Of a DNA stretch of 64,000 nt, positions 5,811-64,000 are shown in pieces. The position numbers and the translations under genes are program-made. The stretch's first letter is position 1. Every line of letters begins with the position of its first letter. The stretch comes from a virus (lineage: Duplodnaviria; Heunggongvirae; Uroviricota; Caudoviricetes), in IMG/VR virus record IMGVR_UViG_3300047667_001391, one strand, 5' to 3'. Below the pieces are notes generated by a model. It was given only the letters and a program-made list of their open reading frames with translations. It searched no databases and was not told where the DNA came from.

Positions 5811-8210
5811 GTGAGTAGAGAAAAACAATTAGAATTAGAAAAAGAAATGCTTTCGTTAGGTGAGGAGAAGTATAGAAATGAACTTAGTGTATCAGATGAT
5901 TTTGACTCAGTTCATATTCAGAAAATTGTAACCAAGATGATTATTCCATTTTCTCAGGTAATTAAGAAAGCTATCGATAAAGATATAGCACTAAATGGTA
6001 ATGGTACTATGCCGCCATTAAAGAGGCTAAACAACAAACATTTCTTCGTGAATGCATTATCCAAAAAAGAAATTGAATTAGGTAGTGAACGGGATACTAC
6101 AGTAACCTGTATGCAACTGTCGTTTCTTGTGGTTAGGGGTATATTTATTTCTCTAAGAGAAGGTAAACGAACAGAATCATCATGTAATCGAGAGTTAGGT
6201 AAACAAATAAATTCTAATGTAATAACTGAGGAGAAATACCCAGATGTTGATGAACTTAGGATTGGTGCTACACTCAATGACTTATTGGTGAATGCATACC
6301 CTGAGTGGTTTGATTTAGTGTGGGATAAAAAACACAAAATATACAAGAACCCATTTGATTTTATTGATTCAAAATCTAAGAAACGGGAATACATCATCAC
6401 ACCATCGGAAAAGTTTATGGACTTCTGTAGTGAGATTATAGAGGGTATTGCTGAAATTAGTGCGATCATTCATCCTATGATATATATACCCGATGATTGG
6501 TCAGAAGACGGACGTGGTGGTGGTTTTTATAGTGAACAGTTGAAGCGTAATATAATTAAAAAGAAGGATATACATTATCCATCTGGTATCAATGTCGATA
6601 TAGCTGCTGCAGTCAATTCAATTCAATCTACACCATGGAAAGTTAATCATCAGGTGTTGTATGTATTGGACATGTTGAATATCATGGAAAAACCCAGTAC
6701 GTTACCTAAAATATTCCCAGAAACAGTAGAAGAAACACCGAAGAAACCATGGGAATCTATAGATAAAGAAAATCACACCGAAGAACAGGTTATGGATGTT
6801 CGGAAATGGTGGCGTAAAGCAGCAAAATTAACTAAAGCGAGGCAAGCAAAGCGTTCACTTGACCTATCCACTAACTCGGTAATATTTCAAGCTAAAAAGT
6901 TTCAAAATGAGCTTTTTTTATACTTTCCCCATGACTTAGATTATCGTGACAGAATTTATAACAAATGTATGACTGGATTAAATACGCAAGGGTCTGATGT
7001 CCAAAAAGGTGTTTTACAATTTGCTCATGGTGAAGTACTGACAGCTGGTGGTGTCCGGTGGATGAAAATCAACATGGCTAATTTAGTTGGTCATGATAAA
7101 CTTAAGTTAGTGGAGCGGGTGGCTTGGGTTGATGACAATGAAATCTTACTGAGAACAGTTGCAACTGACCCAATAGGATGCAATATATGGCATACATGGG
7201 ACAAACCTATCCAAGGTCTAGCAAGTGCATTGGAATATATTAAATGGCTAGATAACCCACTAGAACCTGTTTTTTTGCACGTTCAATTGGATGGACTATG
7301 CAATGGGGTGCAACACCTCTCTGCTATCACTAGAGACGCTGCTGTTGCGCCACATGTTGGGTTAATACCAACCGAACAACGCGGTGATGTTTATCAATTT
7401 GTTTGTGATGCAGTAATTGAAGTAATTAAAAGTGATACTGATGGTTGGGCTGCCATGTCCAATGAGTGGATAGAGTCTGAATTATTAGATAGAGGTCTAA
7501 CTAAAACCCCAGTAATGACCCGCTCATATGGTGCTAAGCTATATGGAATTAAAGAAGGTATTCAGGATTATATCGACGAAAAAAATAAAGAAGATTGCTT
7601 TAGTGATGTGTTTAGTAGCGGCAATTGGATGGGTGAGCGTATCTGGGATGGGATGTCGGAATCACTCGCAGGTCCGATGGCGTTTATGGAATGGGTACAA
7701 AAATGTGCTGGTGTCTTAGCGAAGCATAATTTACCGATGAACTGGGTTAATCCAATCGGCGGGAAATGTTCACAGAGTCCGTTTAAGACAACATCAAAAA
7801 CCCTCAAAGTTAAAATAAATGGTAGGCGGGTTGATTATAAAATACATACCCCGACTGATAAAATTGACAAAGGCAAAGCAGAGGCATCGTCATCACCAAA
7901 CTTAATACATGGTAATGATGCAAGCCACTTATTACTTACTGTAATCAAATGTTTATCTGAAGGCATAAATAAGTTTGCTATGGTACATGACAGCTTTGGT
8001 TGCCATCCAAATTACGCAGATAAATTACTCCTATGTGCTAAAGAGGCGTGGATTGAAATATACAGTAAGGATTGGATGCACATTTGGTATGTGGGTTGGT
8101 GTGAACAAATGCAAAGGTCTGGGTTTGATGTTGACCTACTGCCGTTACCACCAGAAAAGGGCACACTCGATATAACTAATGTTATGGGTTCCGATTTCTT
8201 TTTTGTGTGA
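5811..8210 (+). CDS. single-subunit DNA-directed RNA polymerase, T7 family
   Basis: T7-RNAP-like motifs: DGLCNGVQHLSAI (T7 DGSCSGIQHFSAM), RSYGAKLYG, HDSFG (motif C), and a C-terminal ...SDFFFV (T7 ...SDFAFA). GTG start with a GGGGTGG SD. Confidence 0.9.
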   Translation: MSREKQLELEKEMLSLGEEKYRNELSVSDDFDSVHIQKIVTKMIIPFSQVIKKAIDKDIALNGNGTMPPLKRLNNKHFFVNALSKKEIELGSERDTTVTCMQLSFLVVRGIFISLREGKRTESSCNRELGKQINSNVITEEKYPDVDELRIGATLNDLLVNAYPEWFDLVWDKKHKIYKNPFDFIDSKSKKREYIITPSEKFMDFCSEIIEGIAEISAIIHPMIYIPDDWSEDGRGGGFYSEQLKRNIIKKKDIHYPSGINVDIAAAVNSIQSTPWKVNHQVLYVLDMLNIMEKPSTLPKIFPETVEETPKKPWESIDKENHTEEQVMDVRKWWRKAAKLTKARQAKRSLDLSTNSVIFQAKKFQNELFLYFPHDLDYRDRIYNKCMTGLNTQGSDVQKGVLQFAHGEVLTAGGVRWMKINMANLVGHDKLKLVERVAWVDDNEILLRTVATDPIGCNIWHTWDKPIQGLASALEYIKWLDNPLEPVFLHVQLDGLCNGVQHLSAITRDAAVAPHVGLIPTEQRGDVYQFVCDAVIEVIKSDTDGWAAMSNEWIESELLDRGLTKTPVMTRSYGAKLYGIKEGIQDYIDEKNKEDCFSDVFSSGNWMGERIWDGMSESLAGPMAFMEWVQKCAGVLAKHNLPMNWVNPIGGKCSQSPFKTTSKTLKVKINGRRVDYKIHTPTDKIDKGKAEASSSPNLIHGNDASHLLLTVIKCLSEGINKFAMVHDSFGCHPNYADKLLLCAKEAWIEIYSKDWMHIWYVGWCEQMQRSGFDVDLLPLPPEKGTLDITNVMGSDFFFV

Positions 8211-45716: not shown

Positions 45717-46003
45717 GTGCCCATATTCAACTCATTAAAAAATTTCTAAATGATTATAGTTCAGTTAGCCCAGAAGAATTAAAAGAGAATTTGTTATCTG
45801 CTGATATAATCACAAAAAACAAATACAAAAGTGCCGATGGGTTTACCTACAAGCTAATTCTTGATGGTAGGACTGCTAGGGCTGTCAGGAATGCAGCATC
45901 AGCAGCATGTGACTTATGTGGTGCCGTTGATAAGGATTTTAGAATGTCTGCCATTTCGTCTGTTCATTTTTGGATTAATAAATATGAGGAATTATCAAAA
46001 TGA
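45698..46003 (+). CDS. hypothetical protein
   Basis: 101-aa ORF. Confidence 0.45.
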   Translation: MGHERMSAHIQLIKKFLNDYSSVSPEELKENLLSADIITKNKYKSADGFTYKLILDGRTARAVRNAASAACDLCGAVDKDFRMSAISSVHFWINKYEELSK

Positions 46004-47298
46004 AAATATATTTAGTTGGTGGTGCAGTACGGGACTTGTTTCTTGGCCTAGTACCAAAAGATTATGACTTTGTTGTGGTAGGTAGTAGCCCAAAAGAAAT
46101 GCTCGAAATGGGTTACATACAGGTTGGTAAAGACTTTCCTGTATTCCTTCACCCAGTTTCCAAAATGGAATATGCGCTGGCCAGAACAGAACGAAAAGTT
46201 GGGCTTGGTCATACTGGGTTTACCTGCGATTGGGAGAATGTAACATTAGAACAAGACCTATTGAGACGAGATCTAACGATTAACTCAATGGCTGTGCAAG
46301 TCGAAGTAGACAAAAACGGGTTGATGGTTCGTCATATTGGAATATTATGTGACCCATTTCATGGCCAAGAACATATAGAATCTAAGATGCTGGTCGCAAC
46401 ATCTAATGCATTTATGGAAGACCCACTAAGAGTTTTACGGGTTGCTAGGTTCCGAGCAAGACTTGGACCCGAATGGCAAGTAGAAACACATACACAAGAA
46501 ATGATGAAAAATATTAGTGACCGTGGTGAATTGCAGAGTATATCACCGGAGAGAGTATGGAAAGAACTGGAGTCTGCTTTAAGTGAACCACATCCAAATT
46601 TATTCTTCGAAACTTTATTTGGGTATGATATATTCCATATGAGTAAATGGATGGAGGAAACTCCTCAGCGAGCAGACCACCACCCAGAAGGTGATGTATT
46701 CATACATACCATGCTAACCCTAAAATTGGCCGCACAACGTTGTGTGAGTCCACAAGAAATGTTTGCTTGTTATGCCCATGACTTTGGTAAGCCTAGCTGT
46801 CACGACGAGTTTGGGAGTGCTCATGGACATGAAAAGGTTGGATTAAGTTTTATCGATGAATTTTGTGATTTATATAAAGTGCCTAATAAATTTAGAAAAT
46901 TAGCTTTACATGTATGTGAATATCATACTATAATTCACGGTTGTCTTGGTCGTGGACCGAATAAAGGAATCACAGCCAAGACTATAATGAAAATGTTTGA
47001 AGCAACAGGGGCATTGAAGAGTCCTGACTACTTTTTTCAAATATTGCGCTGCAGTCAGATGGATGCAGGGGGTAGGGGGTACGGAGAAGAACAAATATTA
47101 GAATATGCAAATAAACCATACCCCCAAGTAAGTTACTTACTTGGGTGCTTGCGGTGGGCTATAAATTGTGACACAAAGCCTCTGGTAAAAAAATTACAAG
47201 ATAATGGCGTTGATGGTAGAGTCATTGGAATTGAGATTAGAGCAGCCAGAATGAATGAGATAAAAAGATTTAAATGGGAATGGGAACATAATGAGTGA
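46000..47298 (+). CDS. cca: CCA-adding tRNA nucleotidyltransferase with HD domain (class II, bacterial type)
   Basis: Near-colinear with E. coli Cca. MKIYLVGGAVRD..LG...KD.D.VVVGS.P.EML..GY.QVG.DFPVFLHP and YALARTERK are present. An HD-domain histidine/aspartate set (HDFGK) follows. Confidence 0.9.
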   Translation: MKIYLVGGAVRDLFLGLVPKDYDFVVVGSSPKEMLEMGYIQVGKDFPVFLHPVSKMEYALARTERKVGLGHTGFTCDWENVTLEQDLLRRDLTINSMAVQVEVDKNGLMVRHIGILCDPFHGQEHIESKMLVATSNAFMEDPLRVLRVARFRARLGPEWQVETHTQEMMKNISDRGELQSISPERVWKELESALSEPHPNLFFETLFGYDIFHMSKWMEETPQRADHHPEGDVFIHTMLTLKLAAQRCVSPQEMFACYAHDFGKPSCHDEFGSAHGHEKVGLSFIDEFCDLYKVPNKFRKLALHVCEYHTIIHGCLGRGPNKGITAKTIMKMFEATGALKSPDYFFQILRCSQMDAGGRGYGEEQILEYANKPYPQVSYLLGCLRWAINCDTKPLVKKLQDNGVDGRVIGIEIRAARMNEIKRFKWEWEHNE

Positions 47299-47797
47299 GA
47301 TAAAAGTATTAAGAAGTTTATATTATGCGGGGAAAAGACTCAGGGATACGTCTCCAGTTGATGATGATTTTCCAGAAATGATGCATAATTTTGATGGTGC
47401 ATTATCGTTAGCCGAAAAATCAATAAATACCGGAGAACACCAAAGTATTAGTGATTTATGTAAACGCCATTTCGATTGGGTTGAACGTATGGGTTGGCAT
47501 AATAAAACTGTATTAGAATCGTTAGCATTAATTGCCAGTGAAGTCGGAGAAGCTTCAGAAGAGCTATCCGAAAATGACCCAATGCAATTAAAAATGGCAG
47601 GATTATCTAGAACTATCGCGAAAGCGGTTAATTGTTGCCGTAAAGAAAAACCGACTGATAATTTTAAAACAGAATTAGCAGATATATGTCTTCGTACATT
47701 TGACCTAGCAGAGACTGAGGGTATTGACTTACTTGAAGTAATACTAGCTAAAATGAAGGTTAATGAAGCCAACGGCACTAGAGGCCGAAAAATTTAA
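47291..47797 (+). CDS. MazG-like nucleotide pyrophosphohydrolase
   Basis: LIASEVGEASEEL and ELADICLRTFDLAETEGIDLLEVILAKMKVNEANGTRGRK match the MazG core and C-terminus. Confidence 0.6.
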   Translation: MSEIKVLRSLYYAGKRLRDTSPVDDDFPEMMHNFDGALSLAEKSINTGEHQSISDLCKRHFDWVERMGWHNKTVLESLALIASEVGEASEELSENDPMQLKMAGLSRTIAKAVNCCRKEKPTDNFKTELADICLRTFDLAETEGIDLLEVILAKMKVNEANGTRGRKI

Positions 47798-47812
47798 CAA
47801 TGGGGGAACATA

Positions 47813-48793
47813 ATGAGACTAAATGAGACACAAAAGTTGTGGCTGAATGAGAAGGTAAAAGATAAGGACGTAATATTTATGTCTGTTCATGGTAGCAGAC
47901 TTTATGGACTAGCATCCGAAACAAGTGATCACGACATCAAGGCTATATATTGCCCTTCAAAAGAAGACTTACTTATGGGTCGAGCACTAAAAACATATAA
48001 TTCAAAAAATCATAATATGAATATAGAATTAGAGCTTAAATCTATTAGTAGTTTCTTAAAAAGTGCATTGAGTTGCGACACAAACTGTATCGATTTATTA
48101 TTTACGCCACCAGAACATATTCTGTTCGATTCTAATTTATGGAATAAAATAAAATACTTTCGGCACGATATATTCTCTCAAGACATGAAAGGTATTATTG
48201 GTTATATAAAAACACATAGTTATAAATATACTAATAAAATTGATAGATTTGATGAGATTTCTAAATTATTAGAAATAACATTAAATATGCGGGATTTTGG
48301 GTCTACGTTAACATCAGATGTCGCCAACTCATCAAAATTAATTGATGGGAATTTTAAATATATAAAAAATGTAACCTTGGTTTCTGACCACGAGCAACAG
48401 TATTTGGAAGTTTGTGGTAAAAAATACATACATAATTTAAGTATTAATTCTTTAATTAGAGCACTACAACACGAAGTTTCTCGTTACGGTAACCGAACCA
48501 AGAAAGGTAGTGATGGTGGCATAGATACAAAAAGTCTAAGTCATGCAATTAGGGTGTTATCACAACTTGAAGAAATTATTAATTACGGCCGTGTGAATTT
48601 TCCTCTAATTGAGGCACCATATATTATGAATGTTAAGAATGGAAGGGTTGCACTCGAAAAAGTTATGACTGATATTGATGAACGTTATGATAGATGTATT
48701 CATCTATTAGCAAAAAACAAAAATAATTTCCCCGAAGTATCCAATGTGGATAATATGATTTCGGTAATTAGTAAATACGTTTTTGGGTATTGA
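47813..48793 (+). CDS. Pol-beta superfamily nucleotidyltransferase
   Basis: HGSRLYGLASETSDHDIKAIY fits the GS-x3-G-x5-SDxD minimal NTase motif, followed by a helical C-terminal domain. Confidence 0.55.
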   Translation: MRLNETQKLWLNEKVKDKDVIFMSVHGSRLYGLASETSDHDIKAIYCPSKEDLLMGRALKTYNSKNHNMNIELELKSISSFLKSALSCDTNCIDLLFTPPEHILFDSNLWNKIKYFRHDIFSQDMKGIIGYIKTHSYKYTNKIDRFDEISKLLEITLNMRDFGSTLTSDVANSSKLIDGNFKYIKNVTLVSDHEQQYLEVCGKKYIHNLSINSLIRALQHEVSRYGNRTKKGSDGGIDTKSLSHAIRVLSQLEEIINYGRVNFPLIEAPYIMNVKNGRVALEKVMTDIDERYDRCIHLLAKNKNNFPEVSNVDNMISVISKYVFGY

Positions 48794-48797
48794 ATGA

Positions 48798-49718
48798 ATG
48801 AGACATTCTTATTTCTATGGGTTCTACTCTAACCAACCATATTTGTGTTTTTCAAATAACTGGGAAGAGTTTTGTGGTACCATGCGTGGTTTATCTGAGG
48901 TGGCTGGATATAAACCTAGCCCGAAAGAATATGATAAATATTACGGGCTAATTTCTGCAGCTATATATGATAATGAAACTGATAAACGGGCTAATGATAA
49001 TGTAGTTGGTTGGGATTTATTAATATTAGATATCGACGACACTGATAAAAATCTAGATGAAATTAACGAAATATTTTGGGATTTTCATAGGCTGATGTAT
49101 TCTAGTGCGAGCTGTACTCACGCCAAACTAAAACTTAGGATTATTATACCACTAGATTCAACTGCACCAGCTGATAAGCTAAAGGATGTTTGGTACGCCG
49201 CCCAGATGTGGTGTGGTGGTCTGATAGACAAGCAAACTAAAGATATGTCTAGGATGCATTACATACCAGCTAGATATACCAATAAAGGTGATGATTACAG
49301 GCATTTTTTCGAGGTTAAGGCTGGTGTTTATCTAAATTGGAGGGGGTTAATAGAGAAATACCCAATGCCGCCTTCCAGTGAGCGTTTTAGGGAGAATAAT
49401 CCACTAAAAAAACTAAAGAGAAAAATATTTGTAGATAATAATCCGTTGCCTTGTTTTGATATACAATCTACTGACTGCAAGTTTGTCTGGGATTCTATGC
49501 TAAAGGAGTACGCACTGTTACCGGACGGAAGTCACCATTTGGGTATGTATCGGTTTTTAGTAAAAGTTTGTTACAATGCACAGAAATTAAACTACCCATT
49601 AACGTGTGAAGAATTAACCGATATGGGTGTACAGCTCGACGAAATAGATGGTGGTTTCTATGACGAAAAGAAAATACAAAATAGCTCATATGATGCTATG
49701 GATTTTGTTGGTTTATAG
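48798..49718 (+). CDS. hypothetical protein
   Basis: 306-aa ORF. Confidence 0.5.
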   Translation: MRHSYFYGFYSNQPYLCFSNNWEEFCGTMRGLSEVAGYKPSPKEYDKYYGLISAAIYDNETDKRANDNVVGWDLLILDIDDTDKNLDEINEIFWDFHRLMYSSASCTHAKLKLRIIIPLDSTAPADKLKDVWYAAQMWCGGLIDKQTKDMSRMHYIPARYTNKGDDYRHFFEVKAGVYLNWRGLIEKYPMPPSSERFRENNPLKKLKRKIFVDNNPLPCFDIQSTDCKFVWDSMLKEYALLPDGSHHLGMYRFLVKVCYNAQKLNYPLTCEELTDMGVQLDEIDGGFYDEKKIQNSSYDAMDFVGL

Positions 49719-52071: not shown

Positions 52072-52099
52072 TTTACTTCTTAGTTCAGTAGTGTAATAT
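52072..52099 (+). promoter_or_regulatory. sigma70-like promoter TTTACT-16-TAATAT driving the 8-gene paralog array
   Basis: Consensus boxes, followed by an unusually GC-rich ~50-nt leader. Confidence 0.55.
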
Positions 52100-52148
52100 G
52101 CACCTGAGCTAAGGGGGTTGTCCCGAAGCAGGCTTACGGAATCACATC

Positions 52149-52358
52149 ATGTTAAATGAAAAAATGAAATCGGTTATAGCTGCCTTACGTAATGGTAAAT
52201 ATAATCAATCTAAGGTTAGCCTGCAAGATTCTGATATGCAGTGCTATTTAGGTGTTTTATGTGACGAAAAGGAAACTGGGCATAAAAGTAGACGTAACTC
52301 ATCCCCAGAAATCGCTGTCGTTGATAACACAAACACAGAAGGATTACTTATATGTTAA
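52149..52358 (+). CDS. paralog-array member 1 (truncated, central segment deleted)
   Basis: Shares an N-terminus (M.NE.MK.V.AALR.GKY.Q) and a C-terminal EGLLI with the array family. Confidence 0.5.
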   Translation: MLNEKMKSVIAALRNGKYNQSKVSLQDSDMQCYLGVLCDEKETGHKSRRNSSPEIAVVDNTNTEGLLIC

Positions 52359-52699
52359 ACGAAAATATGAAATCGGTTATAGTTGCCCTACGTAGTGGTA
52401 AATACAAGCAGACCGTAGGTGCTTTACAAAATAGCTGTGGTCATTGCATACTTGGTGTAATTTGTGAGGTGTACGAAACAGACACTGGGGAAAGTCCAAA
52501 ACGTGATTTGCGTGGTCGATTAATAGGTGAAGATTTATCTAGCCATATGGATGTACAGGAGTGGGTGGGTTTAGTGGACGGTGACGGTGATTGCGGCATT
52601 AGTAGACCATCACTAATGACTATGAACGATATACACAAAAATACATTCTCGGAAATCGCTGATTTTATTGAGTCTAATCCAGAAGGATTATTAGTATGA
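52352..52699 (+). CDS. paralog-array member 2
   Basis: Conserved N-terminus MxNxNMKxVxVALRSGxYxQT..LQ.S.GHCxLGVxCEVYE, then WVGL and a C-terminal F.EIADFIE..PEGLLV. Confidence 0.65.
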   Translation: MLNENMKSVIVALRSGKYKQTVGALQNSCGHCILGVICEVYETDTGESPKRDLRGRLIGEDLSSHMDVQEWVGLVDGDGDCGISRPSLMTMNDIHKNTFSEIADFIESNPEGLLV

Positions 52700-53040
52700 T
52701 AAACAAAAATATGAAAAAAGTGTTGGTTGCCTTACGCTCCGGTGAATTTACACAAACTGTAGCAAAATTACAAGATAGTTCTGGCCACTGTTGTTTAGGT
52801 GTGATGTGCGAAGTTTATGAGAAAGAAACTGGTGATGAACTTCCGCGTGACCAATCAGATTTTTTAGTGGGCAATAATCTTAACGACCATCAAAATGCAT
52901 TACTTTGGCTGGGGCTAAGCAGCCCTCAAGGGCATAATGAGGTTGGTAGCAGCCTTATTTGCAGAAATGATTTTAATAGAAATACATTCTTAGAAATTGC
53001 TGATTTCATCGAATCTGAACCAAAAGGATTATTAGTATGA
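52696..53040 (+). CDS. paralog-array member 3
   Basis: Same family. ATGA overlap with its neighbours. Confidence 0.65.
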   Translation: MINKNMKKVLVALRSGEFTQTVAKLQDSSGHCCLGVMCEVYEKETGDELPRDQSDFLVGNNLNDHQNALLWLGLSSPQGHNEVGSSLICRNDFNRNTFLEIADFIESEPKGLLV

Positions 53041-53411
53041 TAAACAAAAATATGAAAAAAGTGTTGGTTGCCTTACGCTCTGGTGAATTCACCCAAGCCG
53101 AAGGTATGCTACAATGTTCTGGTGGCCACTGTTGTTTAGGTGTGATGTGCGAGGTTTATGAGAAAGAAACTGGTGATGAACTTCCACATAATAGCATGGG
53201 GTTTTTGGTAGGTGGGGATCTTGATGGGCAGTTTTTTGGTAAAGTAAAGAGTTGGGTGGGACTAAAAAGTTACTCTGGAAAATTTGTTGGTTCATCGGGT
53301 AATCCCAATACTCCCAATAATTCACTAGTGGATATGAATGACACATTAAATAAGTCATTCGATGATATTGCTGATTTCATCGAAACTGAACCAGAAGGAT
53401 TATTAGTATGA
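53037..53411 (+). CDS. paralog-array member 4
   Basis: Same family. ATGA overlap. Confidence 0.65.
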   Translation: MINKNMKKVLVALRSGEFTQAEGMLQCSGGHCCLGVMCEVYEKETGDELPHNSMGFLVGGDLDGQFFGKVKSWVGLKSYSGKFVGSSGNPNTPNNSLVDMNDTLNKSFDDIADFIETEPEGLLV

Positions 53412-53761
53412 TAAACGAAAATATGAAGAAAGTTTTAGTTGCCTTACGTTCCGGTGAATATCAGCAAACTAAATGTAAATTACAAGATAGTTATGGTCAC
53501 TGTTGTTTAGGTGTGATGTGTGATGTTTACGAAAAAGAAACTGGTGTCAAACTTCGACGAGATACTGATAATTATATAAATGGATACAGTCTTGTCTTTA
53601 TACAAGAAGTGCAGCAGTGGGTTGGATTAACTGATACACATGGTACATTTATGTCACCAAGTAAACCATACTCACTAGCGACGATGAACGATCTTGAGGA
53701 TAAAACATTCCTAGAAATTGCTGATTTCATCGAAACTGAGCCAGAAGGATTATTAGTATGA
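53408..53761 (+). CDS. paralog-array member 5
   Basis: Same family. ATGA overlap. Confidence 0.65.
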   Translation: MINENMKKVLVALRSGEYQQTKCKLQDSYGHCCLGVMCDVYEKETGVKLRRDTDNYINGYSLVFIQEVQQWVGLTDTHGTFMSPSKPYSLATMNDLEDKTFLEIADFIETEPEGLLV

Positions 53762-54093
53762 TAAACGAAAATATGAAAAAGGTTTTAGTTGCCTTACGTA
53801 GTGGTGAATATAAACAAACTCAATATAGATTACAAGATTCTGGTGGCCACTGTTGCTTAGGTGTGATGTGCGAAGTTTATGAGAAAGAAACTGGTGTCAA
53901 ACTTCCGCGAGATGGTGTATCAGGTTTTATAGTAGGTTCTAATCTTAATAAATTTCCGTTAGTAAAGAGCTGGGTGGGATTACACGAAGACATCGTAGCT
54001 GATGTTAATGCGAATATCGATTTACTGGTGGGTATGAATGACACATTTAATAATTCATTCGATGAAATCGCTGACTTCATCGAAACTGAATAA
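53758..54093 (+). CDS. paralog-array member 6 (C-terminus shortened by a small indel)
   Basis: Same family. Ends ...FIETE. Confidence 0.6.
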   Translation: MINENMKKVLVALRSGEYKQTQYRLQDSGGHCCLGVMCEVYEKETGVKLPRDGVSGFIVGSNLNKFPLVKSWVGLHEDIVADVNANIDLLVGMNDTFNNSFDEIADFIETE

Positions 54094-54104
54094 AAAGGAT
54101 TATT

Positions 54105-54458
54105 ATGATAAACGAAAATATGAAGAAAGTTTTAGTTGCCTTACGTTCCGGTGAATTCACACAAACAACATCAACCTTACAAGATAGTTGTGGTCACTGT
54201 TGTTTAGGTGTGATGTGTGAAGTTTACGAAAAGGAAACTGGTGTCAAACTTCCGCGAGATATATCAGGTTTTATAGTAGGTTCTAATCTTAGTGGTTTTC
54301 CTCTAGTAAAGAGCTGGGTGGGATTAAATAAAGACAACGATGCGGGTCATGCAGATGGCAGTATATATTCACTAGTGGATATGAACGATAGGCTCAATAA
54401 TACTTTCTTAGAAATTGCTGATCATATCGAGTCTCAACCAAAAGGATTATTAGTATGA
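54105..54458 (+). CDS. paralog-array member 7
   Basis: Same family. Confidence 0.65.
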   Translation: MINENMKKVLVALRSGEFTQTTSTLQDSCGHCCLGVMCEVYEKETGVKLPRDISGFIVGSNLSGFPLVKSWVGLNKDNDAGHADGSIYSLVDMNDRLNNTFLEIADHIESQPKGLLV

Positions 54459-54799
54459 TAAACGAAAATATGAAGAAAGTTTTAGTTGCCTTACGCTCCG
54501 GTGAATATAAACAAACTCAAGAATCGTTACAAGATAAATCTGGTCACTGTTGTTTAGGTGTGATGTGTGAAGTTTACGAAAAAGAAACTGGGGATACTAT
54601 CCCCCGTAGTAGTAGTGGACTTATTATCGGTGGTGATCTTGGTGTAAGACGCCAAAAAGTAAGACGCTGGGTGGGACTAAAACATCATAACGGTTCGTGC
54701 TTGGTTGGCAAATCACTAATTTCTATGAATGACGCAAATAAGTCATTCATAGAAATTGCTGATCATATCGAGTCTCAACCAGAAGGGTTATTAGTATAA
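54455..54799 (+). CDS. paralog-array member 8
   Basis: Same family. ATGA overlap. Confidence 0.65.
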   Translation: MINENMKKVLVALRSGEYKQTQESLQDKSGHCCLGVMCEVYEKETGDTIPRSSSGLIIGGDLGVRRQKVRRWVGLKHHNGSCLVGKSLISMNDANKSFIEIADHIESQPEGLLV

Positions 54800-54814
54800 T
54801 TAACAAATAAAGCT

Positions 54815-54842
54815 TTTATATTATAAAATAGTCTGGTACACT
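54815..54842 (+). promoter_or_regulatory. putative promoter TTTATA-16-TACACT with a TACCTT leader (weak -35)
   Basis: Homologous in layout to the promoters at 57351, 59056 and 62252. Confidence 0.4.
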
Positions 54843-54881
54843 TACCTTTCTCAAATAAACAACTAACAGCAGGAAAACACA

Positions 54882-56888
54882 ATGGATTTCATGACACTGA
54901 AGATGGCAATAAACAATAAGTTTGACGAACTTCAAAAGGGCAACTTATATATTTCCAATGCAACTAAAGAAGAATTATGGGACACGTACATATCTTCGTT
55001 TCGCCCAGAAGATAACCCAATGTTTCGTGAGCGAACCGAACATGATTGTAATTGCTGCAAGTCTTTTATTCGCACTGCTGGCGGTATGTTGTCCATCGTT
55101 AATAATAAGATTGTGTCTATTTGGGATGTCGTAGATGTACCAGAGGGCTATCAAATCGTCGCCGATGCTATGTCTGCATTAGTTAAAAGTAGGGGCATAG
55201 ATACTGAATTTCTTCACTATGAAAATACTGTTGGTACGGACCATAACCACGACACAGAAACTGATGTTGTGTGGAATCATTTTTATTTAAAATTACCATC
55301 TAGATTTGTTAATAAAGACTCAGGTGCAGTAACTGGTCTAACCCGTGACCGATACAATATGGCACGTCGTTCATTAGCTGGGATCACGATGGAATCTATT
55401 AATATTGTGATTGAGTTAGTTAAAAATAAAGAAATTTATCGCGGCGAAGAGCACTTAGATTCCATTAATAAATTCGCCGGAACGAAAAATGCTTTCGAGA
55501 GTATTAGTGAGCAAAATGTCGAAGCTAGAACAGCATTTCTCTGGGAAGCCAGTAAAAGAATTGGTGCAGCATCTGGTTTTCGAACTACAGTAATTGGTAC
55601 GTTGTTATCTGATATTAGTGAAGGGGTTGAATTATATAAAGCTGTAAAGTCTTTTGAGAGTAAAGTAGCACCAAGTAATTACAAGCGACCAACTCAGATT
55701 TTATCTAAGGCTGCCATCGAAAAAGCTGAAGCTAAAATGATTGAGTTGCTTATCACAGATGCATCACTTGAACGCAGAATGTCAAGAGCTGAAGACATTA
55801 CTATAAATAATGTGTTATTTGCAGACCGCTCCGCTCAAGAAAAAATGGGTATTTTTCATATGCTACAATCTGAGGTTAAGGTTAAGGTGCCGTCATATAA
55901 AAAGGACATGGAAATGTCAATTGATGAGTTCATAAACGACGTGTTACCAAACGTATCGACGGTTGAAATGGCCATGGATAACACACATGTCGGTAATTTA
56001 ATGACCTTAGTCTCGCCAATATACGAAGAAGCTGAATCAATCCTCAAGTGGGGCAATAATTTTAGTTGGTCATATAATGGTGAAGTTACTGACTCAATCA
56101 AAGAGCGCGTAAAAGCTGCTGGCGGTAATGTAACTGGCGATGTACGAGTCTCATTGAGTTGGCACAACGCTGATGACTTAGATTTGCATGCCAAAACACC
56201 TAATGGGCGAAGAATTAATTTTAGTAATCGAACTGATGGGCGTGGCGGTGAGTTAGATGTCGATATGAACGCTAATGGTAGACATGACAGAATAAATCCA
56301 GTAGAAAACATTACGTGGCCAGATGAGTCACGGATGCATAATGGTTTATATGAAGTTAATGTTCATAATTACACGAAGCGTCAAAATGATAATATCGGGT
56401 TTGAGGTTGAGTTAGAGCATAAAGGTATAATCCATAAATTCGTTTATGATAAGGCAGTGAAGGACGGAGAATCTATTGAAGTGGTTCAGTTTGATTTTAA
56501 TACACGAAATGGTATTAGTATAATTAAGTCATTGCCATCAGTTAATTCTCAAAGACAAGTTTGGGGTGTCTCCACCAATAAATTCCAAAAGGTGAGTATG
56601 ATTATGAATTCACCAAACCATTGGGATGGTGAAGCTACCGGAAACAAGCATGTGTTCTTTATGTTAGAAGGGTGTGTTAATCCAGAACCAGTGCGCGGAT
56701 TTTATAACGAATTCCTACGCGATGATTTACACAGTGAACGCAAAGTGTTTGAAGTACTGGCTGGTAAAATGAAACCGGAACCATCAGTTAATCAGTTATC
56801 TGGTTTAGGGTTCTCAAGTACGCAGCGCAATAGTGTATTATGTAAAGTTACAGGCGAAATCAATCGCACAATTAAAATTAAGTTCTGA
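54882..56888 (+). CDS. large hypothetical protein (668 aa) with a possible TerD-like beta-sandwich region
   Basis: VRVSLSWHNADDLDLHAKTPNGRRINFSN...GGELDVDMN resembles the TerD signature (GLGWD...DLDaSa...fyn). An N-terminal HDCNCCKSF Cys cluster is present. Confidence 0.55.
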   Translation: MDFMTLKMAINNKFDELQKGNLYISNATKEELWDTYISSFRPEDNPMFRERTEHDCNCCKSFIRTAGGMLSIVNNKIVSIWDVVDVPEGYQIVADAMSALVKSRGIDTEFLHYENTVGTDHNHDTETDVVWNHFYLKLPSRFVNKDSGAVTGLTRDRYNMARRSLAGITMESINIVIELVKNKEIYRGEEHLDSINKFAGTKNAFESISEQNVEARTAFLWEASKRIGAASGFRTTVIGTLLSDISEGVELYKAVKSFESKVAPSNYKRPTQILSKAAIEKAEAKMIELLITDASLERRMSRAEDITINNVLFADRSAQEKMGIFHMLQSEVKVKVPSYKKDMEMSIDEFINDVLPNVSTVEMAMDNTHVGNLMTLVSPIYEEAESILKWGNNFSWSYNGEVTDSIKERVKAAGGNVTGDVRVSLSWHNADDLDLHAKTPNGRRINFSNRTDGRGGELDVDMNANGRHDRINPVENITWPDESRMHNGLYEVNVHNYTKRQNDNIGFEVELEHKGIIHKFVYDKAVKDGESIEVVQFDFNTRNGISIIKSLPSVNSQRQVWGVSTNKFQKVSMIMNSPNHWDGEATGNKHVFFMLEGCVNPEPVRGFYNEFLRDDLHSERKVFEVLAGKMKPEPSVNQLSGLGFSSTQRNSVLCKVTGEINRTIKIKF

Positions 56889-59798: not shown

Positions 59799-60671
59799 AT
59801 GTTTAACGATATTAGGGTAATATTAAATAATAATGTGGGTATGAGTGTTATAGTCAGTCAGTTTAATGATGGGTCGGTTAATGTATGCCTACCACCTGAT
59901 GTACGCTGTCCGATTAGTGTGGGTTCGATTGTAGTGCGTGCTAAATTGACAAGTTCTGTTAGTTTAGTTGCATTGTTACTGACGGTTGATGCGTGTCGTC
60001 GGAAATTCCCAGATTTACAATTCATCTCTTTGGTTGCTCATTATATGCCATACGCAAGACAAGACCGTGTGTGTAATATGGGTGAGTCACTTTCGTCGAA
60101 AGTTATGGCTGGCCTTATTAATGGTTGTGGTTTTAGTAGTGTGACTATCGCAGACCCACACAGTGATGTGATGGTGGCGTTGATAGATAATTGTAAAGTT
60201 ATTAGTGCAGAAAGTATCATTGCTTCTAATGAAGTTCTATCTAATAGAATTATGGGTGGATTTTATACACTAGTTGCGCCGGATGCTGGCTCAAGAAAGA
60301 AAGTAGAAAAAATCGCAACACGTTTTGGACTCGATGGATTTGTGCAGGGGTCAAAACATAGAAACTTAAAGACTGGGGAATTGTCAGAAATAACATTTAG
60401 TGGTGATGTCCAAGATAAACATTGCCTTATCATAGATGATATATGCGATGGTGGTGGGACATTCGTTGGTCTAGCAGAAATAATGAAGGAAGCTGGGGCA
60501 CTTAGTGTAGATTTGTATGTGACACACGGGTTCTTTTCTCGTGGCACCGATACAGTAAATGGCGAAAATAAGGCAATAAACCAAATATTCACAACAGACT
60601 CAATTAGCAGAGACCAAGGCACACGTAAGTCTCTTAATATAATCGAAATAGGAAATAATAATTATGAGTAA
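59799..60671 (+). CDS. ribose-phosphate pyrophosphokinase (Prs)-family enzyme; candidate ADP-ribose pyrophosphokinase (Adps-like)
   Basis: FNDGSVNV, the YMPYARQDR flexible-loop region and a PRPP-binding CLIIDDICDGGGT motif, all co-linear with bacterial Prs. Confidence 0.8.
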   Translation: MFNDIRVILNNNVGMSVIVSQFNDGSVNVCLPPDVRCPISVGSIVVRAKLTSSVSLVALLLTVDACRRKFPDLQFISLVAHYMPYARQDRVCNMGESLSSKVMAGLINGCGFSSVTIADPHSDVMVALIDNCKVISAESIIASNEVLSNRIMGGFYTLVAPDAGSRKKVEKIATRFGLDGFVQGSKHRNLKTGELSEITFSGDVQDKHCLIIDDICDGGGTFVGLAEIMKEAGALSVDLYVTHGFFSRGTDTVNGENKAINQIFTTDSISRDQGTRKSLNIIEIGNNNYE

Positions 60672-62241
60672 CGTCGTACCAGCAACATTAGCAAAAGATG
60701 CATACAAGGCATTTCACCCATTAGCATATCACCCTGATGTCTCAGAAGTTTATGCAAATTACATAAATCGCTCTGGTCGTTTAAGTAATATACCAACTAA
60801 GATAAATCTTGGTGGTGTAGTTAATATTGGCGCACAAAGATTCTGTATGGATTTCTTAATTGGCGAGTTTAATGATACTTTCTTCAACCTAGATGAAGAT
60901 GTGGCCATTGAGCAGCATGCTCGTGTATTTAGAGCTATGTTAGGGCGAGCATTTAGCGACGAAAGACTACGTAAACTACATAAGTTGGGTTATCTTCCTC
61001 TTCGCCTTAAAACACTACCAGAAGGCACAATAACTCCGTATGGTGTTGCTAACATTACTGTGCGATCAACCAAATCTGATTTTCAGTGGTTAACAAACTC
61101 AATTGAAACTGTATTGAGCTGTGAAGTTTCTGGTATATCTACTTCATGCACCACAGCCACTGCATACCTAAAAACTTTTATTAAATATGCTCGACTCACT
61201 GGATTAGATGAAGAATTCTGTCAATTTCAGGGGCATGATTTTTCAATGCGCGGTATGATTTTTGGTCGACATGGCGCATACCTTTCTGGTTTAGGGCATC
61301 TTGCATCTGGCTTAGTTGGTACCGATACCATGGGTTCAGTTTTATTAGCCGAGAAATTCTATGGCGCAAACCTAGAAACTGAGTTAGTTGGTGTATCAGT
61401 TGATGCAACAGAACATAGTGTAACTTGTTCTTGGATCGAAGAAGGCGAAGAAGAGTTCTGTAAATATTTAATGAGTAAAGCTTCACCTTCCGGTATTCTT
61501 TCGGTAGTTGCTGACACTTGGGACTTTGAGAATTTTGTGTGCAATATTGTACCTAAATTAAAAGAAGCAATTATGGCACGTGATGGGTCGTTTATAATCC
61601 GCCCCGACTCTGGTTGTCCGGTCAAGGTATTAACTGGTTATACTAGCGAAGAAGTGAGCATGGATTATCGCGGTAAATTCTACCCACTTGATGATGATGG
61701 CGAAGTAGATTATTATTCTAAAGCCCTAACACAATTTGAAATTGATGGCCTCATTGAAACATTATGGAATCAATTTGGTGGCACACTAACTGATAAAGGT
61801 TATAAGCTTTTAGATGAGCATATTGGTGCAATTTATGGGGACTCAATTACATTAGAACGTCAAGAGCTAATCTTACAGCGTTTAATGGATAAGGGGTTCG
61901 CTTCTAAGGTTGTCCTTGGTATTGGTAGTTACACGTATCAACACGTGACACGCGACACACATGGCTCTGCAGTAAAAGCTACTAGTATGATTAAAGATGG
62001 CCGTCGCGTTGCTATATTTAAAGACCCTAAAGGTGATAGCAGTAAGAAATCCGCGAAAGGTTTGTTGTATGTTGGTCGCGATGAGAATGGTGTAATACAC
62101 CAATTTGATGATGTATCTGAGGAACACGAAAGAGAAGGTTTATTGGAAACTATATTTTTGGATGGTAAAATGGTTAAAACCACTACACTAAAAGAAATTC
62201 GTGCTCTAATTATGTCACAGCTCCAAACTCAACTTAAATAA
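60664..62241 (+). CDS. nicotinamide phosphoribosyltransferase (NAMPT/NadV)-family enzyme; candidate Namat-like
   Basis: DAYKAFHPLAYHPDVSEVYANY, GHDFSMRG, IIRPDSGCP and GIGSY are co-linear with the NAMPT motifs DSYK, GYRG, RPDSG and GSGGG. It overlaps the Prs-like gene by 8 nt. Confidence 0.8.
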   Translation: MSNVVPATLAKDAYKAFHPLAYHPDVSEVYANYINRSGRLSNIPTKINLGGVVNIGAQRFCMDFLIGEFNDTFFNLDEDVAIEQHARVFRAMLGRAFSDERLRKLHKLGYLPLRLKTLPEGTITPYGVANITVRSTKSDFQWLTNSIETVLSCEVSGISTSCTTATAYLKTFIKYARLTGLDEEFCQFQGHDFSMRGMIFGRHGAYLSGLGHLASGLVGTDTMGSVLLAEKFYGANLETELVGVSVDATEHSVTCSWIEEGEEEFCKYLMSKASPSGILSVVADTWDFENFVCNIVPKLKEAIMARDGSFIIRPDSGCPVKVLTGYTSEEVSMDYRGKFYPLDDDGEVDYYSKALTQFEIDGLIETLWNQFGGTLTDKGYKLLDEHIGAIYGDSITLERQELILQRLMDKGFASKVVLGIGSYTYQHVTRDTHGSAVKATSMIKDGRRVAIFKDPKGDSSKKSAKGLLYVGRDENGVIHQFDDVSEEHEREGLLETIFLDGKMVKTTTLKEIRALIMSQLQTQLK

Positions 62242-62317: not shown

Positions 62318-62446
62318 ATGAAAAATAAATACAGATTTGAAAGTGGCTCGGTTTATGAATTCGATGAAGAAAGTAATGCTTACATTTTCATCGGTAAGCT
62401 CAATGGTCGCACAAAGAAACAATTTCTTGCTGACTGGTCTTACTAG
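62318..62446 (+). CDS. small hypothetical protein (42 aa)
   Basis: ATG exactly at the conserved leader position (gagattagaATG). Below the track threshold. Confidence 0.3.
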   Translation: MKNKYRFESGSVYEFDEESNAYIFIGKLNGRTKKQFLADWSY

Positions 62447-62459
62447 GGGGAATAACATC

Positions 62460-62990
62460 ATGAAAAACTTTTATATTATAGGTATGCCACGATGTAGGTC
62501 ATTGTGGTTTGCTCATCTACTCACAGTCAACAAAGTACATTGCTTTCATGAAAGGCTAAGTAAACGTAGGCTATGGCCAAATCCAACGCTCCCTAAGAGC
62601 ATGCACTACAAATGTGATGTAATTGGGTCAGCTGATACATATCCGAGCGGATTTGACGCAGAATTAGTAGGTAACGCACCTGTTGTTGTCATAACAAGAC
62701 CACTAAATGATGTTTTAATGTCACTCTCTAAAAATTTTGAGCTACCCGCATCACACAAATCTTATAGTTACATTAAGAGCGAGTATGCTGTTTTAAATTC
62801 AATTAAGACTGATAATATGATGACTGTCGATTTCTCTGAACTAAACTGTGTGTATAAAATTAGAGAAATATGTGATTTTATTGGCGTGACTTTATCACTA
62901 AGACATATCAGAAGATACGTGAATAGTAAAATTACCGTGGATAATAAACAGGTGATGATGTCAAACCATGCATTTTTGGATAATTTATAA
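62460..62990 (+). CDS. hypothetical protein (weak sulfotransferase-like N-terminal P-loop GMPRCRSLW)
   Basis: The internal ATG at 62460 follows the small ORF. The track ORF start at 62337 overlaps that small ORF in another frame. Confidence 0.45.
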
Positions 62991-63571
62991 TGAATGACTT
63001 AAAGATTAATTTTGGCCGAGAAGTTGTACCATACGATGATATTAAAACACTAGAAGATGTCGAAGAAGCACTTTTAGTATATACTAGTAGCATGAGCCGA
63101 CACGACCTTATGTATAAAAAAGCTGAACTAAACTCACTGAAGGGTAAGATGGACGGGCACTGCAATGTTACGCAATGCCAAAAGCCTCATGCTATTATGT
63201 GGAATAATGGAACAAATGCTTGGTATTGTAAAAGCTGCGCAGAAGATATTAATAATTCATGCAGGTTCAGTGATTTTTGGCCATTGTGTGTGTCAAAACA
63301 AACTCAACTAGATAAGTTGTCTGAGCGAGATTTACTGTATGTTGGGCACGAAGACCAACTACCACCGTTAAATGATATCAATTTTCATAACCACTCACGT
63401 CATCCCAATAAAGTGCCAAGCTCAAGGAGCTACGATAATTTTTATTACCATAAAATTGGTTTTGAGAAAGCTAAAGTGCCATACAAAAGAGAGTTGGCTA
63501 AAATAGGCCGTAATGCACCATGTCCATGTGGCCGTGGATTAAAATATAAAAAATGTTGTGGGAGAAAATAA
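62990..63571 (+). CDS. SEC-C motif (zinc-binding) domain protein
   Basis: The C-terminal [15 protein letters not shown] is the SecA-C-terminal-type metal-binding motif. Additional Cys/His clusters occur upstream. Confidence 0.55.
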
Positions 63572-64000
63572 TGTCAGATAACATGTGTACTTTGCTTGAA
63601 ATAAAGAAAACGCATTACGCATTTCATGGTAATAGATTTGATTTAAGATTTAATGGATTCGAAGATAACGTAATGTCGATAGAGAATGCTCATCCTCAAA
63701 TTTTACATTGTGACTTCACTGTTGAGCAACGTCAATCTAAAGCATTTTCTGTAAATGGCCAACAACATTATATTATTTGGTCACCGGAACTAGAAAATGT
63801 GCTTGGTGTTCCACTGTCAATATTTCAAAAATTAAATGATGAGGTTGCAGATTTACAGGATAATGTTTGCAAAAAATCCAAGAAAATCTGTTTTTTATCT
63901 AATAAAATAAGTGACATTAGTGAGAATTATGATGTAGTCGAAAAAGAATTACATAAAACACAGAGTAAACTATTAGATAGCTGTAGAATTTGCGCAGTGT
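63571..64000 (+). CDS. hypothetical protein (3' end beyond the window)
   Basis: Open frame runs to the window edge. The ATG overlaps the upstream stop (TAATG). Confidence 0.5.
   Translation, partial: MSDNMCTLLEIKKTHYAFHGNRFDLRFNGFEDNVMSIENAHPQILHCDFTVEQRQSKAFSVNGQQHYIIWSPELENVLGVPLSIFQKLNDEVADLQDNVCKKSKKICFLSNKISDISENYDVVEKELHKTQSKLLDSCRICAV

Follow-up and report, generated by a model that had tools for sequence, protein, structure and literature searches.

Tandem DUF8296 paralogs in an uncultured marine phage: an array that evolves by recombination between conserved gene ends

Why would a phage carry eight copies of one small gene in a row, alike at both ends and different in the middle? 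The question is raised by a 64,000-nucleotide (nt) stretch of DNA from a virus of the Caudoviricetes (IMG/VR record IMGVR_UViG_3300047667_001391), referred to here as the window. At positions 52149-54799 the window, which comes from an uncultured marine phage, encodes eight successive open reading frames (ORFs) on the plus strand, g1 to g8, all of a single family, DUF8296. Six copies are intact, g1 carries an internal deletion and g6 is shortened at its C-terminus. Comparison with related phages, represented by the metagenomic contigs L082, L084, L087 and L088, indicates that the array changes through recombination at the conserved ends of its genes. This recombination alters the number and order of copies and homogenizes their ends, and each middle segment is kept as a cassette type of its own, under selection that ranges from purifying to relaxed. 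We consider this descriptive account of the array to be close to certain.

Eight paralogs of one family in a putative operon

All eight ORFs matched phrog_18067, a family of unknown function, with E-values from 3e-7 to 4e-21. The match of g1 (2.8e-7) covers only the N-terminal part of the profile; g2-g8 matched at 1.5e-11 to 3.8e-21, with g3 and g8 aligned over their N-terminal part only. Identical database proteins bear the precomputed tag PF26948, named DUF8296, and g1 is itself identical to one so tagged, P0115. A preliminary description of this DNA, made from the letters alone, had correctly listed eight consecutive paralogs but had not recognized the family, which turns out to be a very large catalogued one of unknown function. 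It had also set membership of a well-characterized structural or housekeeping family against its own proposal of a diversified binder; our searches gave only a family of unknown function and none that is well characterized. Scans of the paralogs and of 98 diverse family members with Pfam, NCBIfam and PADLOC returned nothing consistent. The Pfam scans are empty because the version scanned has no PF26948 model. Weak PADLOC rows for Cas12 (E 0.003-0.02) were dismissed as chance. No named relative was found in Pfam, NCBIfam, PDB or BFVD, which are general rather than anti-defence-specific libraries, and megablast of the locus against cultured phages gave no match. In the literature we found no paper mentioning PF26948 or DUF8296, and nothing relevant on tandem-paralog arrays in phages.

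The copies align at an N-terminal motif, a WVGL core and an MND..F.EIADFIE..PEGLLV tail, and the stretches between these differ in sequence and length, as first described. The N-terminus had been called near-identical. A shared motif is indeed present, but residues 17-24 are only 42% identical, and g1 and g2 form a divergent pair. The repeat unit has a period of 341-371 nt. Since the longest exact repeat between window copies is only about 51 nt, an assembly artefact is unlikely.

A single truncated copy had been reported, but two are defective (Table 1). The gene g6 ends GAA TAA AAA GGA TTA TTA TGA, compared with GAA CCA GAA GGA TTA TTA GTA TGA in its siblings, so that PEGLLV was lost through a TAA codon and a 3-nt deletion. 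The gene g1 and its counterpart L084_1, which is also truncated, are highly divergent (proportion of non-synonymous differences, pN, 0.32), as would fit a remnant in decay. In three related phages the promoter is followed first by a truncated or internally deleted copy, and the deletions differ (window 52149-52358; L084 4293-4469; L088 2679-2927). The unrelated arrays L040/L067 and L058 also open with a copy that matches just the N-terminal half of the profile. The defective first copy may reflect either decay at the edge of the array or a leader ORF retained for translational coupling.

Five of the seven junctions between genes are ATGA overlaps. The claim that every junction is an ATGA or TATGA overlap holds for these five and fails at g1/g2, which overlap by 7 nt (ATGTTAA), and at g6/g7, which are separated by an 11-nt spacer. 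The sequence AAGGA lies 8 nt before each downstream ATG, inside the E-G-L-L-V codons of the preceding gene. No terminator-like site was found on the plus strand within 52072-54880, which covers the array and the DNA just after it. By these features the array has the sequence makings of a translationally coupled operon, with coupling predicted from the overlaps.

A sigma70-type promoter of the array's own had been proposed at 52072. The element has 8 of 12 consensus matches, which is under the threshold of the consensus scan, so the scan did not list it. The 29-nt block around it is nevertheless invariant in the window and in L082, L084 and L088, even though neighbouring coding DNA in those relatives is only 83-93% identical to the window. 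The element is thus plausibly functional, and we regard it as a probable promoter on grounds of conservation rather than consensus. The 28-nt element occurs once in the window and looser patterns occur near chance level, so a repeated phage-specific promoter was rejected. Downstream, the leader has a core, GGGGTTGTCCC, that is conserved in four phages; leader and array gave no Rfam match beyond a chance-level hit.

An imperfect palindrome spanning the -10 region was seen in RNAalifold output (window 52078-52117; L088 2600-2640). In the relatives its arms read CTTAGTTCAGTAG ... CTACTGACTAAG; the window has a shorter version, CTTAGTTCAG ... CTGAGCTAAG. We found no compensatory changes or covariation in it, and an ungapped inverted-repeat search at the promoter found nothing. 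The palindrome could be an operator.

Table 1. Features of the DUF8296 array in the window
Feature	Position	Strand	Description
Promoter-like element	52072-52099	+	TTTACT-N16-TAATAT; within a 29-nt block invariant in the window, L084, L088 and L082
Leader	52100-52148	+	relatively G+C-rich, upstream of g1; read from the sequence
g1	52149-52358	+	69 amino acids (aa); degenerate DUF8296 copy with internal deletion, lacking WVGL and ND
g2	52352-52699	+	115 aa; intact DUF8296 paralog, cassette type A; 7-nt overlap with g1
g3	52696-53040	+	114 aa; intact, cassette type B; ATGA overlap with g2
g4	53037-53411	+	124 aa; intact, cassette type C; ATGA overlap with g3
g5	53408-53761	+	117 aa; intact, copy used for modelling; ATGA overlap with g4
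g6	53758-54093	+	111 aa; last six residues (PEGLLV) gone
g7	54105-54458	+	117 aa; intact; start 11 nt past g6 stop, AAAGGA Shine-Dalgarno sequence retained
g8	54455-54799	+	114 aa; intact; ATGA overlap with g7; sole copy with a basic middle segment

Cassettes in close relatives and in unrelated phages

Four metagenomic contigs share the same flanks: a helicase gene, a 118-aa ORF and a dCMP deaminase gene before the array, and a DUF8224 gene and a 264-aa ORF after it. Nucleotide identity of the flanks to the window is 88-93% for L084 and L088 and about 83% for L082. At this same site L082 carries four copies, L084 a truncated copy plus four, L088 a truncated copy plus five, and the window a truncated copy plus seven. 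The comparison of copy number across related phages, which the preliminary description had suggested, thus shows that both number and order differ at one site between flanks that are about 90% identical. Three of these layouts were reproduced by independent assemblies (L084/L085, L082/L083 and L088/L089). Such labile copy number between close relatives fits an accessory family under changing selection.

Individual cassettes could be followed from phage to phage. Cassette A comprises g2 with L084_3 and L088_4, which are 92-96% identical to it in nucleotide sequence over the N-terminal and middle segments. Cassette B comprises g3 with L084_4 and L088_3, to which its middle segment is 76-78% identical in nucleotide sequence, and the ends of g3 are closest to paralogs in the same genome. 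Cassette C comprises g4, L084_2, L088_2 and L082_1. In order, the window carries A-B-C, L084 C-A-B and L088 C-B-A. Among the remaining copies, the middle segment of g5 is orthologous to that of L087_1, from a second locus of a related phage, and that of g7 is related to L088_5. The closest relative of g6 is g7 (76% identity in the middle segment), and g8 has no clear ortholog among the four relatives.

The ends and the middles of the genes have different histories. The 138-nt N-terminal segments and the C-terminal segments are nearest to paralogs in the same genome (0.86-0.90 identity), and the middle segments are nearest to orthologs in other phages. Over the first and the last eight codons, the paralogs agree at 0.87-0.88 of third positions. 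In several ortholog pairs the proportion of synonymous differences (pS) is higher at the ends than in the middle, as in g4/L084_2 (0.47 versus 0.19). The ends therefore carry the signature of gene conversion or unequal crossing-over, from which g2 escapes. The constant termini had been taken for a protein scaffold. They are present, but in the window clade they are partly a product of intragenomic homogenization and not of protein constraint alone. The unrelated array L040 has no third-position homogenization, which indicates that constant ends across the family reflect protein constraint and that nucleotide homogenization is an addition in the window clade.

Among window paralogs, synonymous divergence (dS) is 0.71 in the N-terminal segment, about 1.4 and saturated in the middle segment, and 0.66 in the C-terminal segment; the corresponding ratios of non-synonymous to synonymous divergence (dN/dS) are 0.21, about 0.5 and 0.37. 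Orthologs give dN/dS values of 0.11-0.80 (median about 0.5) in the middle segment, where pS is an unsaturated 0.18-0.38, and of 0.02-0.24 in the N-terminal segment. The flanking genes give 0.10-0.31, at pS 0.12-0.39. With three or four orthologs per cassette type, there are too few for site tests. In the proposed dN/dS check on the variable segment, values are above those of the flanking genes but never exceed 1 (0.1-0.8). Rapid diversification of the middle segments within the array did not hold up, as the cassette types are old and have orthologs elsewhere.

A diversity-generating retroelement (DGR) had been excluded for this locus, and our results agree. No reverse transcriptase was found among the ten neighbouring proteins scanned, which represent part of the window's ORFs. 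No template/variable repeat pair was found, the only repeats being the paralogs themselves. The W6/W7 mismatches comprise 11 of the 12 substitution types and show no adenine bias.

We then have the question of how common such arrays are. The set compared comprised 82 loci: 79 on viral contigs, two in phage records and that of the window. A single copy is present in 59 of them, two copies in 11 and three to eight in the remainder, so that 23 of 82 carry at least two copies. Arrays recur in unrelated carriers, namely Synechococcus phage B23, L040/L067, L058, L059, L017 and the prophage L094. In phage B23 four or five copies lie next to one another, their genes abutting or overlapping; L040/L067 has a truncated copy plus seven, and prophage-like loci have up to 5-6 copies. 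In loci without close relatives in the set, the best match of each copy lies within its own locus, a sequence pattern that indicates lineage-specific expansion or concerted evolution. Arrays thus appear to have arisen independently in at least six lineages. The architecture originally described, a constant scaffold with variable segments amplified in tandem within one operon, is real and recurs in unrelated phages.

The relatives also have a second DUF8296 locus, with one to three copies after an Rv2179c-like exonuclease gene (L087 1336-3067; L082 9923-10933). Because L087 73-601 matches window 63472-63991 at 88%, an equivalent second locus is expected about 1-2 kilobases (kb) past the end of the window. 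A second locus inside the window was rejected, as the ORFs at 62337-63571 are unrelated to the relatives' Rv2179c-like gene.

Distribution, fold and genomic setting

DUF8296 is widespread in phages. A profile search of 1.84 billion cluster representatives, clustered at 50% identity, gave 44,310 clusters at E<=1e-3, of which 26,864 also pass E<=1e-10. Of the best 150 representatives listed, almost all are 107-171 aa long with a single domain. In 15 of these 150, two or three DUF8296 domains are fused in one chain, although long fused proteins may be over-represented among the listed representatives. Such natural chains, with two or three complete domains and short linkers, occur among P0121-P0240 (e.g. 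P0123, 377 aa). There are at least 525 hits on viral contigs. In tblastn searches of cultured phages, the window query brought up 11 records with the family and a second query two more, 13 altogether, and the protein is annotated as hypothetical in every one. The carriers are Alteromonas phages AD45-P1 to P4, Synechococcus phages B3/B23 and S-H1, Ralstonia phage RSP15, a Bradyrhizobium phage and an Alishewanella phage. Among 185,579 species genomes we found 48 DUF8296 loci, spanning Actinomycetota, Pseudomonadota, Planctomycetota, Chloroflexota, Saccharibacteria and an archaeal metagenome-assembled genome (MAG); the setting is prophage-like in both of the loci inspected (2 of 48). Every source names the protein only as hypothetical.

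The paralogs are soluble single-domain proteins of about 115 aa, predicted to consist of helices and small hairpins. The family is acidic, with a median isoelectric point (pI) of 4.9; g2-g7 have a pI of 4.7-5.0 and g8 one of 7.7. An AlphaFold2 (AF2) model of g5, built from 74 homologs, has a mean predicted local distance difference test score (pLDDT) of 96.1 and a predicted template modelling score (pTM) of 0.90. Five helices are predicted, at residues 4-15, 33-45, 66-72, 90-95 and 101-109, joined by short hairpins. The conserved N-terminus corresponds to helix 1 within the folded domain (pLDDT 97-98). The copies vary in three places, namely two hairpins (21-29 and 75-89) and the stretch that follows helix 2 (46-65), and the g5 model predicts order in all of them (pLDDT 87-98). 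Structure prediction, one of the checks originally suggested, thus gave a confident fold without a similar solved structure: the best Foldseek hit in PDB had an E-value of 1.1, and a PDB profile search returned only a phage fibre protein (E 1.2). The top Foldseek rows were NlpC/P60 and other cysteine peptidases, all non-significant, and a BFVD search gave only uncharacterized phage proteins. An AF2 model of the two-domain fusion P0121, from a 12-sequence alignment, reached pLDDT 86 and pTM 0.67; its domains are well folded, and the segment after helix 2 of each domain falls below pLDDT 50.

Conservation was measured in two alignments, of 98 and 253 diverse members. Residues L13, C32, N94 and D95 are invariant in both. 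L25 is invariant among the 253 members and at least 90% conserved in the 98-member set, and W9, A12, S15, G16, Q20, C33, L34, G35, V36, C38, W71, L90, F101, I104, A105 and I108 reach at least 90% in one or both sets. No His is conserved across either alignment. C32 lies directly before helix 2, H33-45 in the g5 model. By helical periodicity C33, L34, A37, C38 and Y41 line up on a single hydrophobic side of the helix, which makes C33 and C38 probable core residues. The window copies g2-g8 keep L13, C32, N94, D95, G35, W71 and the F101-I104-A105 motif, and the intact copies also keep ALRSGxYxQ. The degenerate g1 retains C32 and lacks W71 and N94-D95. In the window clade Trp9, which is 95% conserved in the family, is replaced by Val or Ile.

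Clustering of neighbouring genes at 80 loci found no partner gene conserved across lineages. The settings are of an early or replication type; in a T7-like contig the gene sits between those for S-adenosylmethionine (S-AdoMet) lyase and primase-helicase, and the window array sits between the dCMP deaminase and DUF8224 genes. The window has a G+C content of 35.6% and encodes a T7-like single-subunit RNA polymerase (5811-8210; phrog_414, E 5e-164), DnaB, ribonucleotide reductase, PhoH, SbcCD, a family B DNA polymerase and SSB. The closest matches to that DNA polymerase, at 54-55% identity, come from Vibrio phages of some 100 kb, henriette 12B8 among them. The contig of the phage itself measures 87 kb or more, and its close relatives derive from Tara and Joint Genome Institute (JGI) metagenome samples.

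Several neighbouring genes deserve mention in their own right. The 668-aa gene after the array (window 54882-56888) belongs to PF26675/DUF8224 and has homologs, at most about 50% identical, in 536 records of cultured phages, including phages of Klebsiella, Salmonella, Serratia, Acinetobacter and others. The labels 'DNA-directed RNA polymerase' and 'DUF2135' that some of these records give it seem to reflect inconsistent annotation. A possible RNA-repair cluster lies directly upstream of the helicase gene (window 46000-49718). Its members are a nucleotidyltransferase of the CCA-adding/poly(A) polymerase type that has an HD domain (46000-47298), a second nucleotidyltransferase that is RlaP-like (47813-48793) and an ORF of 306 aa without a Pfam match. 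A gene of the NAPRTase family (60664-62241) overlaps the end of the preceding 290-aa ORF (59799-60671) by 8 nt. By analogy, these two genes may form a module for salvage or reconstitution of nicotinamide adenine dinucleotide (NAD). Some phages use such modules against NAD-depleting defence.

Possible functions and known parallels

Membership in DUF8296 explains nothing mechanistically. The window copies match the family profile and keep its invariant residues and length; the window clade differs in having Val or Ile for Trp9, a long array and homogenized ends. The reading that we favour, tentatively and as a possibility rather than a probability, is that the proteins bind variable host factors and neutralize or redirect them, in accessory counter-defence or host takeover. 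One conserved promoter would drive transcription of all copies, and their translation would be coupled through the ATGA overlaps and the AAGGA Shine-Dalgarno sequences embedded in the PEGLLV codons. The product would be a panel of specificity variants of one activity, each cassette type covering a different variant of the host target. We lean to an accessory binder because the family is phage-restricted, small and acidic, lies in early-type contexts, has been amplified repeatedly and independently, and is labile in copy number.

Several observations weigh against such a binder. No experiment, annotation or structural analog ties DUF8296 to a target or a defence system, and the gene is single-copy in 59 of 82 loci. 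Hosts range from Actinomycetota to Cyanobacteria and include an archaeal MAG, which argues for a conserved rather than a host-specific partner. The absence of any neighbour gene conserved across lineages also counts against it. The middle segments evolve several-fold faster at non-synonymous sites, but their ratio never exceeds 1, and positive selection is not demonstrated. Finally, an invariant Cys before a helix and an invariant Asn-Asp pair are commoner in catalytic or ligand sites than in pure binders, and this core would fit an enzyme or a ligand site equally well. A more ambitious form of the binder reading strikes us as unlikely. It holds that the arrays are a recombination-driven cassette system, in which homogenized ends serve as built-in crossovers for swapping, amplifying and reordering the specificity cassettes of an inhibitor family with a new fold. 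The phage repertoire would then be matched to variable host immunity without a DGR, and DUF8296 would be a new and very abundant class of counter-defence proteins.

The same invariant core could instead mark a small thiol-dependent enzyme or a cofactor- or metal-binding protein, which we judge somewhat unlikely. In such a protein C32 would act as nucleophile or ligand, with N94-D95 completing the site; the array would encode isozymes whose variable segments tune substrate choice, and the dCMP deaminase neighbourhood would reflect function. C32, N94 and D95 are invariant and C33 and C38 at least 92% conserved across the 98-253 members; C32 directly precedes a helix in the g5 model; and all intact paralogs retain these residues. 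The very different hosts among the carriers are as expected of a generic biochemical activity, the array follows the dCMP deaminase gene in all four related phages, and cysteine peptidases head the Foldseek rows, non-significant as they are. Against an enzyme, the domain has only about 115 residues, shows no significant fold or sequence similarity to any enzyme and has no conserved His to partner the Cys. The dCMP deaminase neighbourhood is limited to the window clade, and up to eight diverged copies with labile copy number would be unusual for a metabolic enzyme. Like papain-like and NlpC/P60 cysteine peptidases, which fill those top rows, DUF8296 has a conserved Cys directly before a helix. 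Assignment to these peptidases was rejected, since they have a Cys-His dyad on a papain-like fold and DUF8296 has no conserved His.

If the paralogs were subunits of one hetero-oligomer, coupled translation would serve to hold them in equal amounts, and each subunit would have its own interfaces, formed by the variable segments. The five ATGA overlaps with a Shine-Dalgarno sequence inside the upstream gene would suit this, as would the natural two- and three-domain chains (15 of the best 150 representatives) and the well-folded domains of the fusion model (pTM 0.67). That score, however, stems from a 12-sequence alignment, and fused proteins may be over-represented among the representatives listed. 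Most phages have a single copy. Number and order vary between near-identical phages, and g1 and g6 are defective, neither of which a fixed stoichiometry should tolerate. We find a hetero-oligomer quite improbable. The array could also be near-neutral duplication debris, left by a recombination-prone locus that amplifies a dispensable gene, with middle loops that drift and no collective function. The dN/dS of the middle segments (median about 0.5), well above the flanking genes and below 1, is compatible with drift, two of eight copies are damaged, copy number is labile, and the same segments vary in length throughout the family-wide alignment. Yet six copies hold open frames and all invariant residues despite saturated synonymous sites between paralogs (dS about 1.4 in the middle segment), and cassette types are recognizable as orthologs across phages at a synonymous divergence of 0.2-0.4. 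Order is predicted for the variable segments of g5 (pLDDT 87-98), arrays are independent in at least six lineages, and the promoter block is invariant. These points make debris a doubtful account of the locus. The probability left over after these four readings goes to functions not considered here.

How does the array compare with systems that are already known? In the hyperplastic regions of T4-type phages, cassettes of internal-protein (IP) genes are reportedly shuffled via repeated flanking sequences. At least one T4 IP is a counter-restriction protein. The array resembles these regions in its small tandem accessory genes, in short conserved borders that act as recombination substrates, and in content and order that differ between similar phages. 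T4 IPs have a conserved N-terminal peptide for capsid targeting, which the prohead protease removes, and an unrelated remainder. The borders in the array are coding parts of a folded domain (pLDDT >95) and probably not such a cleaved peptide, nor a promoter stem-loop; the placing of the conserved N-terminus in helix 1 speaks against a signal that is cut off. The array is moreover all one protein family, with no sequence or fold relation to the T4 IPs. Less close are the 'genomic accordions' of poxviruses, in which K3L is said to be amplified. There too a viral accessory gene is amplified in tandem and its copy number varies between close relatives; those copies are recent and nearly identical, whereas the array paralogs are old (their synonymous sites are saturated), form specialized cassette types and have no known host antagonist. 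With DGRs the array shares a constant scaffold and localized variability in a phage protein. It differs in that its variation spreads over several segments and includes indels, is not adenine-specific, and has no reverse transcriptase among ten neighbours.

What is new here is that a catalogued but uncharacterized family forms recombining cassette arrays. With about 44,000 clusters, no solved structural relative and no annotation, DUF8296 is among the larger uncharacterized phage families that we have encountered. The locus and its close relatives amount to a natural experiment, in which phages about 90% identical carry differing numbers and orders of defined cassettes at the same site. The invariant Cys/Asn-Asp site and the catalogue of cassettes make the question of function directly testable. 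If DUF8296 were a thiol enzyme, it would represent a new catalytic fold. If the proteins are counter-defence or takeover binders, the arrays would show how a phage repertoire can be built and reshuffled without a mutagenic retroelement, and the family would offer many inhibitor candidates.

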